A stretch of DNA of 64,000 nucleotides. It comes from a virus. Its lineage: Duplodnaviria > Caudoviricetes. Position 1 is the stretch's first letter, and the number at the start of each line of letters is the position of its first letter. The position numbers and the translations under genes were made by a program. The stretch covers positions 141,057-205,056 of the IMG/VR virus record IMGVR_UViG_3300037424_000564; one strand, 5' to 3'. Positions 44,226-62,163 of this stretch are shown here, in pieces. Below the pieces are notes generated by a model. It saw nothing but the letters and a program-made list of their open reading frames with translations. It was not told the origin of the DNA and did not search any database.

Positions 44226-44282
44226 TAATAGACAAATAATTAATATCATATTATGATTAGATCAACGAATAGGAGATACCAC

Positions 44283-45491
44283 ATGTTTATAGCAAATCAC
44301 CCCAAATTATATATAGTCGGAGGTTGTGTCAGAGACATGATCATGGGTCGAGAGGCTTCTGATGTGGATTATTGTTTCTCCGGTTCTGAATCAGAATTGA
44401 TGAAATTGTTTCCTAAAGCATATCAGGTTGGTATTTCTTTTCCTGTGTTCATGGTAAATGGATGTGAAGTTGCATTGACTCGTACTGAAGAATCTAATGG
44501 AGATTCCTATGGTGACTTTATTGTTACTAATGTTGGGGTTTCTATTGAAGAAGATTTGAATCGTCGTGACTTCACAATGAATCAAATAGCAATTAACACA
44601 ATGACTCAAGAAGTGATTGATCCTACTGGCGGCAAGAATGATATTACTGGTATGATCATTCGTACAACTAATACTAAAGCATTTGAAGAAGATCCTGTTC
44701 GTATTTTGAGAGCAATTCGATTTGCAACTACCATGGGATTTGCAATTGAAACTGAAACATTCCAAATGATGAAAGAAAATGTTCATCGTTTGGAATTCAT
44801 CACCAAAGAACGTATTGTGTTGGAATTGGAAAAAATGTGGAAAGGTGCTAATGTGCCTTCTGTATTTTTTACAATTTTGAGCGAGATTGGTGGATTGAAA
44901 TTCATTTCTCCTGTGTTTGAAGCAATGGAAAATGTTCCTGCTGGACCTTTCAAATACCATGGGGATGATACAGTATTTGATCACACAATGAATGTCATCA
45001 ATCGAATCAAACAACATAACGGAACGTTCAGTGCATTCATTGCTGGATTGACTCATGATTTTGGAAAGACTGTGACTCCTGCACATGTATTGCCGGGACA
45101 TCATGGCCATGAGTTTAATGGGTTGGAATTGGCTAAAGAATTTATAACAAATAATCGTTTTGATTCTTACACAAATGAGTTGATCTTGGTTGCTATGAGA
45201 AATCATATGCTGGTTCGTGTTTTCAATGAAATGAGAACTATCACCAAAGTCAAATTTGTTAAATCTATTCCTAAGCATATGGTGGAAGATTTCAAAGTGA
45301 TTGTCTTTTCTGATCATGAAAGGTCACAGGAAACTAAAAATTTTATTAGTTTCGTTTTTGCAACTGTCAATTCTTTTAGAATGACCAAAGAAGATATCGA
45401 ACGTGTTAAAAATACAAAAGATAAAAAAGAAGTAGCTATCAGAATCATCACTAAACATTTGGCTTCTAAAATTAAGGAGATTGAAGAATGA
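44283..45491 (+). CDS. cca: tRNA nucleotidyltransferase (CCA-adding) with HD domain
   Basis: YIVGGCVRD..MG...DVDY, ALTRTE, EDLNRRDFTMN, EDPVRILRAIRF, ERIVLE, H...DHT...THDFGK. Confidence 0.92.
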   Translation: MFIANHPKLYIVGGCVRDMIMGREASDVDYCFSGSESELMKLFPKAYQVGISFPVFMVNGCEVALTRTEESNGDSYGDFIVTNVGVSIEEDLNRRDFTMNQIAINTMTQEVIDPTGGKNDITGMIIRTTNTKAFEEDPVRILRAIRFATTMGFAIETETFQMMKENVHRLEFITKERIVLELEKMWKGANVPSVFFTILSEIGGLKFISPVFEAMENVPAGPFKYHGDDTVFDHTMNVINRIKQHNGTFSAFIAGLTHDFGKTVTPAHVLPGHHGHEFNGLELAKEFITNNRFDSYTNELILVAMRNHMLVRVFNEMRTITKVKFVKSIPKHMVEDFKVIVFSDHERSQETKNFISFVFATVNSFRMTKEDIERVKNTKDKKEVAIRIITKHLASKIKEIEE

Positions 45492-58165: not shown

Positions 58166-58723
58166 CTACTTTTGATGTTCTATTATTTTTTTAATATGAT
58201 TCAAAAACATATCTACTGAATGATCTAGTTTCATTCTGTTACATATCTCGCAACATGTAACACAATTATCAATATCATACCCCTTTGAATTATCTACTCT
58301 ATCAATTCCATTATAAATATATAACTCGTTATTATAATTTCGTTTGACTGTTTTTGGCGACGAAGAAGGTGGAGAACCACAATAATAACAATTATCTTTC
58401 GTTAACATAGAAAATTCTTTTCTTGTTAATGTAAAACTTTTTTTATATCTATAACTTGCTCTAGTTTTATAAACTGAATATAATTTCCTTTCATTTGGGT
58501 TATCATACTTAGCTTTACATTTTCCCATACCACAACTTAATGATCCAAATTTTCTAAAATGATATGCTGATTTAGAATAACTTCTGTATGACTCGTTACC
58601 ACATAAACAGCGAGTTAACCAATATGCATTTTGATGATTTATGTCATCCCCACGCATTTCATACTTATCGAGAAATGTAATACTTCCTATCACTTCTCCT
58701 TCTCTGTTCTTTATTACTCCCAT
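58166..58723 (-). mobile_element. HNH homing endonuclease (TAG stop)
   Basis: WLTRCLCGN, SCG..C, CYYCG, NGIDRVDNSKGYDIDNCVTCCEICNRMK. Confidence 0.85.
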
Positions 58724-58742: not shown

Positions 58743-58793
58743 TTTTCCCTTCAATGTTATTTATAAAATAAAACAAAAACATTGAAGGGAAAA
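58743..58793 (-). promoter_or_regulatory. TATAAATA late promoter inside a 16-bp inverted repeat upstream of the HNH gene
   Basis: TTTTCCCTTCAATGTT (58743-58758) / AACATTGAAGGGAAAA (58778-58793); TATAAATA at 58758-58765. Confidence 0.7.
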
Positions 58794-58798
58794 GAAGA

Positions 58799-58833
58799 AA
58801 ACCCTATCACCGGACTAGCTGATGATAGGGTTT
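58799..58833 (-). terminator. Terminator closing the amber-leader operon
   Basis: AAACCCTATCA / TGATAGGGTTT stem followed by TTCTTCTTTT on the minus strand. Confidence 0.65.
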
Positions 58834-58836
58834 ATA

Positions 58837-58905
58837 TTAAGTAGCAAAACATTTCTTACATTGTGGTGTATGAGACTTACCACACTCTTTACATTTCTTG
58901 CACAT
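58837..58905 (-). CDS. 22-aa Cys-rich micro-protein
   Basis: MCKKCKECGKSHTPQCKKCFAT; GAGGT site 7 nt upstream. Confidence 0.45.
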   Translation of the reverse strand: MCKKCKECGKSHTPQCKKCFAT

Positions 58906-58942
58906 AATCAATACCTCTTCTTTTGAGATATGATTATTTATC

Positions 58943-59260
58943 TTATTTGTACATTTTAAATTTTTTGAAGAACTTTCTATCCTCTCCATAAATTGGTTCT
59001 GTAGCAATTGCAGTAAAACCAGTTTCGTGATCAGGCTCGTAAAACATGTGAGACTTAATTCCTTGTAAATCCAATTTCAACTTTATATCAATCAATTTTG
59101 CCTGATCTTTGACCTCAAACAAAATAAAGTGACATGTCTTTTCAGGATGCTCAATTTGTTTCGTTATTTCTTGAGTTGAGTGAGCCGCCTGTATTATTTG
59201 ATAATGTAAAGACATGTCTTTTCTAATGAAGCAATAAGTATAAGGAGTCTAATTACGCAT
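58943..59260 (-). CDS. Peptidyl-tRNA hydrolase (Pth2)-like protein with in-frame amber codon at position 4
   Basis: AAGGAG-7 nt-ATG CGT AAT TAG ACT CCT TAT ACT TAT TGC TTC ATT AGA AAA GAC ATG...; read-through gives YTYCFIRKDM...QIIQAAHS...FYEPD...TAIATEP, which restores the family's first beta-strand. Confidence 0.72.
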
Positions 59261-59591
59261 TGTCAGTCTCCTTTAGAATAGCTCTAATTGCAATCAAATG
59301 ATCTTCTGTTAAGATACCACCAAACGGTGGTAGAATCCATTCTGGACGTGCATTGCAAACATAATTCATAGCTTTTCTATATGCTTCATTTCCAGTTTTA
59401 CCTTGACAAATTAATTTTCTCTTGGATTGCTTTTCTGGTGATGCAAAACATTGTTTAGGATCTTTGTCTCGTAAAATTGCGTAAAGAGCAAAGTCGTATC
59501 CAGAGAAATTGTAGTTGTCTTTGCATGATTGTTTCCATGCTTTGATCATGTTTAGATATTGTTCTTTAGATTCAAAAATTTCCATTTTCAT
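59253..59591 (-). CDS. Hypothetical protein, first full gene of the amber-leader operon
   Basis: 112 aa; stop overlaps the Pth2-like ATG (ATGCGTAA). Confidence 0.75.
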   Translation of the reverse strand: MKMEIFESKEQYLNMIKAWKQSCKDNYNFSGYDFALYAILRDKDPKQCFASPEKQSKRKLICQGKTGNEAYRKAMNYVCNARPEWILPPFGGILTEDHLIAIRAILKETDNA

Positions 59592-59601
59592 AGTGTGTAA
59601 T

Positions 59602-59661
59602 CCTTTATAGGTGATTAAGTTAAGTTAAGTTAAGTATACTTCACGTTATTTCCTATAAAAG
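59602..59661 (-). promoter_or_regulatory. Translational attenuator hairpin sequestering the SD of the 112-aa gene
   Basis: CTTTTATAGG (59661-59652) pairs with CCTATAAAGG (59611-59602), which overlaps the SD AAAGGA (59606-59601). Confidence 0.55.
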
Positions 59662-59697
59662 TTACGGTGGTCTATTTGAATGTGTCTATCGTTTCAT
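59662..59697 (-). CDS. Leader peptide M-K-R-[amber]-T-H-S-N-R-P-P
   Basis: GGAGG-5 nt-ATG AAA CGA TAG ACA CAT TCA AAT AGA CCA CCG TAA. Confidence 0.65.
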
Positions 59698-59747: not shown

Positions 59748-59776
59748 ATCATATCATTAGATTGGTTATCTGTCAA
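59748..59776 (-). promoter_or_regulatory. Early sigma70-type promoter of the amber-leader operon
   Basis: TTGACA-17-TATGAT. Confidence 0.8.
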
Positions 59777-60709: not shown

Positions 60710-61261
60710 CTATTTACTATCTGTAATGGTAAATGCCATATCAGTATTATTAATAGAAGTTATTTTTGAATGATAACCATCCTTAAGTTTTTGTGTTTCA
60801 ATTTCAATAATTTTAATTTCATCGATATAATTAAATTTCGCAACCTTGATAGGAGGAACCCTAAGATTTTCGGGAAGATGTGTTTGAACACTTTTACATA
60901 AGTCAAAATAAACATCAGTAATATCGTGTAATCCGTCACTTGACCAACATGAATTATGATTACTTGTATTTTCAAATTGATCTAGTGGAATGGAGTTCAG
61001 ACCCCATGCTGTACTGACAGCAGACCAAACAGATACATGTCCTGTAAAAATCATGTGGATAAATTTAACATCAGAAATTGAGTCATAACTACTAAGAGTA
61101 TTACCATCAAGATAACCATAATAACTCGCGCTCATTTTTAATTTAATATAAAGAGATTTCTTCTTTTTATTGTCATAACTATTCATCGTGTTGATTGCAG
61201 GAAGTAGTGTTCTGACCATATTCGCTACAGTAATATTAGCATCCAAAGTAGCAACACCCAT
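60710..61261 (-). CDS. Hypothetical protein
   Basis: 183 aa ORF with AAGGAG site. Confidence 0.65.
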   Translation of the reverse strand: MGVATLDANITVANMVRTLLPAINTMNSYDNKKKKSLYIKLKMSASYYGYLDGNTLSSYDSISDVKFIHMIFTGHVSVWSAVSTAWGLNSIPLDQFENTSNHNSCWSSDGLHDITDVYFDLCKSVQTHLPENLRVPPIKVAKFNYIDEIKIIEIETQKLKDGYHSKITSINNTDMAFTITDSK

Positions 61262-61335: not shown

Positions 61336-61605
61336 TTAAACTTTTGTTTGTAGAATTGGACACCATTCAGGTACAGGTTTCATATCTCGATATCCTTCAA
61401 CATACCCCATAATTTTTTTATAGGTAACAGATGGATGTGTGCAGTAATGATCACTGGCACACCCTGCATTAGGAGTAGCCCGTTCTTGTTCGAATACACA
61501 AGAATTTCGTCCTCCATGACTACAACCATCAATAGATGTACAAGTACGCCGATTGATAACAGTAGAAGTAATAGGAAACTGATAAGGAAAAATTGTTTCT
61601 GACAT
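61336..61605 (-). CDS. Hypothetical Cys-containing protein
   Basis: 89 aa ending PVPEWCPI. Confidence 0.65.
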   Translation of the reverse strand: MSETIFPYQFPITSTVINRRTCTSIDGCSHGGRNSCVFEQERATPNAGCASDHYCTHPSVTYKKIMGYVEGYRDMKPVPEWCPILQTKV

Positions 61606-61631
61606 AATTTATCTCCATTGTGATATGTTTG

Positions 61632-61703
61632 TGGGCAATGCGGGAATTGAACCCGCGATAGAGAATTTAGAGTTCCCTGCTTTAACCACTTAGCTAATTG
61701 CCC
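61632..61703 (-). tRNA. Amber suppressor tRNA, anticodon CUA (3' CCA not encoded)
   Basis: GGGCAAT TA GCT-AAGTGGTTAA-AGC A GGGAA-CT CTA AA-TTCTC TATC GCGGG-TTCAATT-CCCGC ATTGCCC A: complete 72-nt cloverleaf, followed by CAA. Confidence 0.92.
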
Positions 61704-61711
61704 ATTTCATT

Positions 61712-62134
61712 TCATTTCTCCTTTTTAAGTTTGATATTCACACAACCCATATGACATTCAATAACTTTTATTGATTTATCAGGATAGAATTGACATTGAT
61801 TACTATCACTACGTACATCAGACTCTTTGGTTGTTTTGAAGACACAAAACTTCAATCTCCTACTTTTAACCCGTAAAATTTGTTTAAGAAGATCTTCTGG
61901 AAACCAACTCTCGAATTGTTCAATAGAATTGAATCCAAAATATTGATTATCATTTCTAGTAAGATCAAATTTAGGATGAATATCATCCGAATCACCTTTA
62001 TAGTCCATATAGTATCTATATAATCTTAAGCATTCTATTACAGCATTAGCTTTTTTTCTTGCTCGTTCATAAAAACTAATACCATTATTATAAATACCAA
62101 ATCCATTGCCATATTGAAATCTATAAACAAACAT
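61712..62134 (-). CDS. Hypothetical protein
   Basis: 140 aa; FGFNSIEQFESWF...QCQF; co-transcribed with the tRNA. Confidence 0.65.
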   Translation of the reverse strand: MFVYRFQYGNGFGIYNNGISFYERARKKANAVIECLRLYRYYMDYKGDSDDIHPKFDLTRNDNQYFGFNSIEQFESWFPEDLLKQILRVKSRRLKFCVFKTTKESDVRSDSNQCQFYPDKSIKVIECHMGCVNIKLKKEK

Positions 62135-62163
62135 TTTATTCTCCTGTGAATTGGGTTAAGAAG

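Follow-up and report, generated by a model that had tools for sequence, protein, structure and literature searches.

Can a phage gene that carries a stop codon almost at its start still be expressed? The question was raised by a gene resembling peptidyl-transfer RNA (tRNA) hydrolase 2 (Pth2) in a sediment phage (Duplodnaviria; Caudoviricetes), in which an in-frame amber codon (TAG) follows the start. The complete phage genome has 205 kilobases (kb). The window analyzed here is a stretch of 64,000 nucleotides (nt), positions 141,057 to 205,056 of IMGVR_UViG_3300037424_000564. Coordinates are window positions unless marked as genome positions, and L-numbers denote sampled loci of relatives. We conclude that the real gene probably runs from 59260 to 58943, that the UAG at its fourth codon is decoded, the phage's own tRNA(CUA) at 61631-61703 being the most likely decoder, and that expression of its Pth2-fold product is probably gated by suppression. 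Rather than damage or an artefact of gene calling, the TAG appears to be an intrinsic switch.

An amber codon opens a Pth2-like gene

The gene lies on the minus strand and opens with ATG (59260-59258), CGT, AAT and TAG (59251-59249), after which the frame stays open to 58943. The stop of the gene directly upstream, here called the partner gene (TAA, 59255-59253), overlaps this start as ATGCGTAA. With the TAG read as a residue, the product is M-R-N-(TAG)-TPYTYCFIRKD-MSLHYQIIQAAH..., 105 residues in total. Eleven sense codons (T-P-Y-T-Y-C-F-I-R-K-D) separate the TAG from the ATG at 59215, where gene calling under translation table 11 places the start.

An earlier note on this DNA had described the 90-residue open reading frame (ORF) from 59215 as having no evident Shine-Dalgarno sequence, and had pointed to the ATG at 59260, with AAGGAG at 7 nt and overlapping the previous stop. 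Both descriptions agreed with the sequence (Table 1). The note had considered the gene mis-called by 15 codons. The called start is indeed too late, but this is more than a mis-call, the TAG being conserved and tied to a phage-encoded suppressor tRNA and to a second amber codon, in the leader of the operon.

Conservation of the TAG in close relatives

A word-indexed search gave 31 homologs, most of them 101-108 amino acids long and starting M-(0-5 residues)-(T/I)-P-Y-T-Y-C-F-I-R-K-D. Seven were called as 90-93 amino acids, and the DNA of all seven was fetched. Together with the window, they form a set of eight distinct close loci called short (window, L001, L002, L003, L019, L020, L021 and L023). 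The TAG occupied the identical column in 8/8 of these, two or three codons past an ATG preceded by a Shine-Dalgarno sequence.

All 11 codons following the TAG varied among the eight loci, 10 of them synonymously only. Pairwise codon differences in this stretch were 173 synonymous versus 12 non-synonymous. Because the codons differ almost only synonymously, the stretch appears to be translated, and the comparison indicates that the UAG is passed in frame.

This pattern bears on the alternative that the 90-residue protein from the ATG at 59215 is the one expressed, with ATG-CGT-AAT-TAG acting as a regulatory or coupling mini-ORF and the stretch past the TAG left untranslated. The short form is the table-11 ORF, it was chosen by gene callers in all eight loci, and it keeps a weak Pfam PTH2 match of 15 bits. 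However, it leaves the coding-like evolution of the upstream stretch unaccounted for. There is no Shine-Dalgarno sequence ahead of 59215, and the 'start' called in L019 and L023 is a TTG, in a column that holds Leu in most full-length homologs. In Stenotrophomonas phage CM1, one of the distant relatives described below, no ATG is found for a long stretch past the TAG. The short form would also be short of one of the four strands, the first, and of residues Y9, R13 and D15. We regard its expression as highly unlikely.

Errors in sequencing or assembly typically leave a lone in-frame stop near the start, as seen here, and so do recent nonsense mutations in genes that are decaying. Either origin is scarcely conceivable: a contig from a second, independent sediment study is identical to the window over 59030-59335, TAG included, and the TAG is conserved in the same column or at an early position in more than 20 lineages with the frames downstream intact.

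Four of the 12 distinct close loci had the Pth2-like gene without TAG. On the best tree of close homologs the TAG state needed five changes, of which well-supported branches force only one. Taken together, the alignments argue that the TAG is real and selected, not a chance occurrence. Non-TAG homologs with a leader of equal length have Gln in the TAG column. Because these read M-x-N-Q-T-P-Y, and CAG to TAG is a single transition, Gln is our best guess for the inserted residue.

The same opening in distant phages

A tblastn search against GenBank phages gave 33 records with 29-43% identity, and the 30 listed were nearly all jumbo phages. An early TAG opened the gene in 15 more distant phage lineages, always in the order ATG, one or two codons, TAG and, outside the fusions described below, conserved strand. 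Cultured or named carriers include Pectobacterium phage CBB, Cronobacter phage GAP32 (L030), Serratia phage BF (L031), Erwinia phage pEa_SNUABM_19 (L032), Yersinia phage fHe-Yen9-04 (L033), Xanthomonas phage XbC2 (L034), Erwinia phage Kaldavass (L035) and Ralstonia phage RsoM2USA (L026). The uncultured 595-kb phage LR756511, four IMG/VR megaphages and locus L045 also have it. No early stop was seen in RaK2, L046 and L047/L048 when the homologs were read at the DNA level.

Purine runs resembling Shine-Dalgarno sequences preceded every leader ATG in the relatives. The early stop was TAG in 23/23 lineages, never TAA or TGA, and was the third codon in 10 lineages and the fourth in 13. The base following it was A in 21 of the 23 gene leaders, compared with 10 of the 34 ORF-ending TAGs of this genome (Fisher p 3e-6). 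An A after UAG is said to have been described by Bossi in 1983, and by Miller and Albertini in the same year, as a context favoring amber suppression in E. coli. It may favor suppression here.

In Xanthomonas phage XacN1 (AP018399.1, L029:4428-5306) and in CM1 (L028:9440-10300), the Pth2-like domain forms the C-terminal third of a protein of ~280 amino acids. The frame of this fusion is preceded by ATG-AAG-TAG or ATG-AAA-TAG, the former in XacN1 ORF364. The N-terminal part of both proteins has H-D-I-G-K-P and H-D-M motifs and is HD-domain-like, which Pfam did not confirm.

Existing annotations of the Pth2-like gene are systematically wrong because of the early TAG, with the start 15-31 codons late or the gene uncalled. 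The annotated start is 31 codons late in CBB gp573 and GAP32_397, and 19 codons late in XbC2_407 and the Kaldavass gene. In BF, the pEa phage, fHe-Yen9-04 and RsoM2USA, the homolog is missing from the annotation. The CBB homolog lies at L025:7989-8327; 6 kb upstream of it, CBB has a second gene, gp587, which is an ordinary PTH2 gene.

In an exhaustive HMMER search, 933 cluster representatives matched the family at E<=0.001, mostly with a length of ~100 amino acids. With cultured jumbo phages among its carriers as well, the family is not unusual cargo in large phages, contrary to what the earlier note had supposed of Pth2.

An amber-suppressor tRNA accompanies the gene

ARAGORN detected a single tRNA in the window. 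It has the anticodon CUA, that of an amber suppressor, and lies 2.4 kb upstream of the Pth2-like gene on the same strand. It matched Rfam RF00005 over its full length (threshold 29 bits; score in Table 1). The cloverleaf is canonical, with a 7-bp acceptor stem, a 4-nt variable loop and A as the discriminator base. The gene ends ...CCCAC and does not encode CCA, whereas most of the relatives' copies do. Because the suppressor tRNA has no encoded CCA, the CCA-adding enzyme present in the window (Table 1) matters. The genome has 25 other tRNAs, a cluster of 24 at genome positions 51-61 kb and a single one at 71 kb, and the nearest of them lies ~130 kb from tRNA(CUA). A pyrrolysine system was considered and rejected: the complete 205-kb genome gave no PylS match, and the 'Pyl' label assigned by ARAGORN reflects only the CUA anticodon.

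Eleven close loci had at least 0.9 kb of upstream sequence. In 10/11, a tRNA(CUA) was found 0.5-3.6 kb upstream of the gene, and it was the only tRNA detected in each of these 10. It also occurred near 10 distant loci, namely L007 (two copies), L009/L010 (65 nt upstream), CBB, LR756511 and L045-L050. The comparison thus indicates that the tRNA is linked to the Pth2-like gene.

In the IMG/VR megaphage of 379 kb (L007:6552-7964), a transfer-messenger RNA (tmRNA), the two tRNA(CUA) and two tRNA-Lys form a group 2-3 kb upstream of the TAG-led gene, with a weak match to the partner protein in between.

Read-through completes a predicted Pth2 fold

The HMM search proposed in the earlier note, against Pfam PTH2 (PF01981) with and without the extension, was run: the extended form scored 16.5 bits (profile positions 6-114) and the short form 15.0 bits (20-114). 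Among relatives passing the threshold or annotated as PTH2 were the XacN1 fusion (25.3 bits) and six proteins with precomputed PF01981 matches (P0018, P0021, P0022, P0025, P0027 and P0030). A profile of the family matched solved Pth2 chains (24bt, E 1.3e-4; 2zv3, E 9.5e-4), and the alignments began at the strand within the extension.

The 105-residue form was modeled by AlphaFold2 with a predicted local distance difference test (pLDDT) score of 96.3 and a predicted template modeling (pTM) score of 0.88. The model places the first strand at residues 7-13, inside the extension; the earlier note's statement that the called ORF lacks the family's first strand is borne out by it. Foldseek searches of the Protein Data Bank returned Pth2 structures as all of the top 13 matches (3erj, 1rlk, 1q7s, 2zv3, 1wn2 and 1xty), with probability 1.0 and template modeling (TM) scores of 0.61-0.78. 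The 105-residue product is therefore predicted to have the Pth2 fold, the presence of which had been left to structure prediction by that note.

The N-terminal R-x-D strand and the Q-x-x-H motif are present together only with the extension (C-F-I-R-K-D-M and Q24-A-A-H27), aligning with V-V-I-R-N-D-L...Q-G-G-H-A of 2zv3. Read-through was thus rightly said to restore YTYCFIRKD, with a hydrophobic strand and R-x-D followed by Q-x-x-H. In an alignment of 109 sequences, R13, Q24, H27 and E75 were invariant, and Y9, D15, A28, L56, F73, D77 and R95 were at least 90% conserved. At the Ala of the Q-x-x-H-A motif, found in 90% of the family, the window protein has Ser. The catalytic Asp of the R-D-A-G-H-T segment is presumably D86 of S. 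solfataricus Pth2. Here its column holds the invariant E75, a different but likewise acidic residue; P76 and D77 come next.

The protein thus shares with archaeal and eukaryotic Pth2 (including Bit1, 1q7s) the alpha/beta fold, a first strand ending R-x-D-L, the Q-x-x-H-A helix motif and an acidic residue in the Asp column. Unlike them, it is only 105 residues long, and the family is phage-borne with a gene that opens with a stop codon. The protein may hydrolyze an ester on tRNA, this putative role being the weakest step of our reading. Neither a second PTH2 gene nor a release-factor domain was found in the genome.

TAG elsewhere in the genome

Genome-wide recoding of TAG, that is, genetic code 15 as in crAss-like and Lak phages, would also account for an in-frame TAG. 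The phage has the tRNA(CUA), a G+C content of 30% and TAG as its rarest stop. Low G+C, rare TAG and a suppressor tRNA have been described as precursors of recoding (Borges et al., bioRxiv 10.1101/2021.08.26.457843). However, 34 of the 329 ORFs (~10%) end in TAG, and coding density is already 91% under table 11. Treating TAG as a residue lengthened the ORFs no more than treating TGA or TAA in the same way, and TAG was preceded by an ATG with a Shine-Dalgarno sequence no more often than TGA or TAA were. We consider recoding of the whole genome extremely improbable.

Of 65 candidates from a survey of in-frame TAGs across the whole genome, almost every one was an artefact located where an ORF ends. 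The two best were rejected as adjacent genes or alternative starts. At genome positions 61524-62135 (minus strand, outside the window), a TAG-ended hydrophobic ORF of 55 amino acids is followed in the same frame by an ASCH/DUF3850-like gene with its own Met start. At genome positions 114238-114645, ordinary starts were present past the TAG. As far as these surveys indicate, only the Pth2-like gene and the leader of its operon carry a supported in-frame TAG, and TAG is not recoded genome-wide.

Two TAG-ended ORFs lie near the cassette: an HNH endonuclease gene just downstream (58166-58723, minus strand), and an ORF of 183 amino acids between the tRNA(CUA) and the operon (60710-61261, minus strand). 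Read-through would add 2 and 24 residues to their products, respectively; we saw no evidence that this is relevant.

Is the phage tRNA the decoder?

We infer that the phage's tRNA(CUA) decodes the UAG. Several observations weigh against this reading and against Pth2 chemistry of the product. The tRNA(CUA) is present with a gene lacking TAG in L011, L013, L015, L017 and L046-L048. Conversely, the TAG is present in L006, L008, RsoM2USA and CM1, where no tRNA(CUA) was found within 5-10 kb; pairing of gene and tRNA is not obligatory in cis. The tRNA(CUA) is at most 65% similar to the phage's 25 other tRNAs, and the comparison with them gave no isotype call. Back-up stops were not enriched behind TAG-ended ORFs: the next in-frame stop came after a median of 6.5 codons, versus 7 for TAA and 5 for TGA. 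With ~10% of ORFs ending in TAG and no such back-up, a strong suppressor would extend many phage, and presumably host, proteins. On the side of the protein, the Pfam PTH2 score is under the gathering threshold of 23 bits. Two residues are missing from the G-K-G-K loop in the profile alignment; in the column of its Lys stand Tyr20 in this protein and Gln in the consensus of the family. We take the catalytic Lys of this loop to be K18 of S. solfataricus Pth2, reportedly from work by Fromant and colleagues in 2005. With no counterpart of this Lys, the chemistry may differ from that of Pth2.

The loci with unpaired gene and tRNA also speak for an alternative in which the TAG is read by a host suppressor or by near-cognate read-through, and the phage tRNA(CUA) serves another purpose, such as disturbing host termination or countering a defense. 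The early position of the UAG and the A following it would help such read-through, termination on very short chains being inefficient. However, the use of TAG in all 23 gene leaders and, as shown below, in 12/12 operon leaders fits the CUA anticodon. Also, the close loci have no further tRNA in their flanks, and in this genome the tRNA(CUA) lies apart from the tRNA cluster. A tRNA(CUA) was likewise not found within 5-10 kb in RaK2 and XacN1, and XacN1 has two tRNA(CUA) genes in its terminal repeats, with a target gene that was not identifiable according to its authors (PMC5852040). A tRNA missing from a flank of 5-10 kb is therefore weak evidence. We hold decoding by a non-phage factor to be unlikely and retain the phage tRNA(CUA) as the probable decoder.

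The operon, its leader and a hairpin

The partner gene precedes the Pth2-like gene in all close loci and overlaps its start by 1-8 nt. Searches of Pfam, PHROGs and the ESM Atlas with its protein returned no match. Ahead of it lies a leader ORF of 11 codons, M-K-R-TAG-T-H-S-N-R-P-P-stop (ATG AAA CGA TAG ACA CAT TCA AAT AGA CCA CCG TAA). The leader was found in 12/12 distinct close loci, 78-110 nt ahead of the partner gene, including the four without TAG in the Pth2-like gene. It follows the pattern M, 1-3 residues, TAG, 3-5 residues, (R/S)-P-P, stop, and the stop inside it is TAG in every case (12/12).

Table 1 Features of the putatively amber-gated locus and of associated genes in the window.
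Feature	Position	Strand	Remarks
Pth2-fold gene	58943..59260	-	105 codons, UAG read as a residue
Table-11 ORF of the Pth2-like gene	59215..58943	-	90 amino acids
In-frame TAG of the Pth2-like gene	59249..59251	-	codon 4, followed by A
Shine-Dalgarno AAGGAG of the Pth2-like gene	59268..59273	-	7 nt ahead of ATG 59260
Partner gene	59253..59591	-	112 amino acids; directly upstream in 12/12 distinct close loci
Hairpin	59597..59665	-	leader stop and 13 nt around it (5' arm) predicted to pair with the partner Shine-Dalgarno (3' arm); z -2.8
Leader ORF	59662..59697	-	11 codons; TAG at 59686-59688; GGAGG upstream
Promoter-like TTGACA-17-TATGAT with TG	59748..59776	-	11/12 positions; weak, regional site count no higher than in shuffles
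Terminator-like hairpin and T run	58788..58833	-	probable operon end; read from the sequence, not in the consensus scan
tRNA, anticodon CUA (amber suppressor)	61631..61703	-	ARAGORN; Rfam RF00005, 69.5 bits
CCA-adding enzyme	44253-45491	+	PolyA_pol domain, 84.6 bits

The spacer between leader and partner gene is predicted to fold into a hairpin (Table 1). A similar long-range pairing occurred in the minimum-energy folds of 11/11 relatives, with differing arm sequences and z scores of -1.4 to -3.8. Because the spacers do not align, RNAalifold gave no consensus for the leader region, and the pairings were read from folds of single sequences.

An ORF of 22 codons (58837-58905, minus strand) separates the Pth2-like gene from the terminator-like hairpin. 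It has two CxxC pairs, like a mini zinc ribbon, and is served by a purine-rich ribosome-binding site of its own. In the contig of the second sediment study, 58832-59029 is swapped for 105 other bases, at a low depth (3.5). The swapped stretch reaches from the final 29 codons of the Pth2-like gene through the 22-codon ORF into the terminator.

A proposed mechanism

A ribosome stopping at the UAG of codon 4 would release only a tripeptide. Enzyme output would therefore be proportional to amber-suppressor activity. The UAG of the leader would be an earlier gate of a like kind, in a leader that ends R-P-P-UAA. Only ribosomes that get past the leader UAG would reach the leader stop, where they could open the hairpin over the partner Shine-Dalgarno sequence; the hairpin may thus work as a gate. 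Translation of the partner gene would then supply ribosomes to the overlapping start of the Pth2-like gene. With one gate behind the other, output would respond steeply to rising suppressor activity.

Minigene studies reportedly show that ribosomes terminate poorly on very short nascent chains. The very early UAG would make failed attempts cheap, and may weaken termination on a nascent chain of two or three residues. As for the enzyme, its role may be to dispose of peptidyl-tRNA and further read-through by-products; a different possibility is negative feedback, with the suppressor tRNA as its target. As a tentative proposal, the cassette would be a self-contained governor of amber suppression, with two serial UAG gates that allow a tRNA-ester hydrolase to be made only while the phage's suppressor tRNA is active, the hydrolase acting back on the suppressor tRNA or on peptidyl-tRNA by-products.

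A related alternative concerns only the function of the product, which would be dedicated to deacylating or otherwise disabling the suppressor tRNA: more suppression would give more hydrolase, and more hydrolase less suppression. Loci whose gene lacks the TAG still have the tRNA(CUA) nearby, and the Pth2 loop Lys is missing while other polar residues (R13, Q24, H27 and E75) are invariant. CBB has its ordinary PTH2 gene 6 kb away, and the family may therefore do something else. Such feedback would also explain how a suppressor is tolerated with ~10% of ORFs ending in TAG. On the other hand, the modeled fold and the Q-x-x-H-A and acidic motifs appear to fit ordinary Pth2 chemistry equally well. 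We regard an enzyme dedicated to the suppressor tRNA as doubtful, and gating of a Pth2-fold product by UAG suppression stays our preferred reading with either function.

Comparison with known systems

Early in-frame stops and leader peptides are familiar means of regulation. The release factor 2 (RF2) gene, prfB, autoregulates through an early in-frame UGA that is escaped by a +1 frameshift and senses RF2. Like prfB, the Pth2-like gene resembles a translation-factor gene with an early in-frame stop, and its own synthesis would report how stop codons are handled. Here, however, the frame is unchanged and escape would need the suppressor tRNA. Leader-peptide attenuation is known from the ermCL, cat and cmlA leaders and from SecM-secA. 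The present leader is likewise a short ORF by a hairpin hiding the next ribosome-binding site, and a parked ribosome would open that hairpin. The input, in contrast, would be UAG read-through instead of an antibiotic or secretion signal, and the leader ends Pro-Pro-stop.

In code-15 phages, a phage suppressor tRNA lets TAG be read as Gln, and suppressor supply has been proposed to time gene translation (bioRxiv 10.1101/2021.08.26.457843). The likeness is that a phage tRNA(CUA) permits translation of in-frame TAG in a standard-code host. In those phages, however, many late and lysis genes are involved, with TAGs throughout, whereas here it is one gene and one leader, with the TAG at codon 3-4, and TAG is still a working stop for ~10% of the ORFs. 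A hydrolase is not mentioned in that study (0 occurrences). A synthetic feed-forward gate built on a suppressor tRNA (Nucleic Acids Res 2020, PMC7969014) also ties expression of a target gene that has an amber codon near its start to a suppressor tRNA encoded in the same circuit. That gate is engineered, whereas the present one would be natural, conserved and tied to a tRNA-hydrolase-like gene. A literature search found no published description of an amber-gated Pth2-like cassette.

Implications for large phages

To our knowledge, many large phages with the standard code carry amber-suppressor tRNAs, the purpose of which is not known. The locus and its relatives offer a concrete, conserved target for such suppressors, a Pth2-fold gene with UAG at its third or fourth codon. 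XacN1 ORF364 looks like the target that its authors could not identify (PMC5852040). The cassette would be a natural example of a circuit that was built independently in synthetic biology, and it may be a stepping stone toward full stop-codon recoding. If the proposed mechanism is true, the governor would let a standard-code phage run a stop-codon suppressor safely, and the Pth2-like gene would be the first conserved client for the long-puzzling suppressor tRNAs of jumbo phages.

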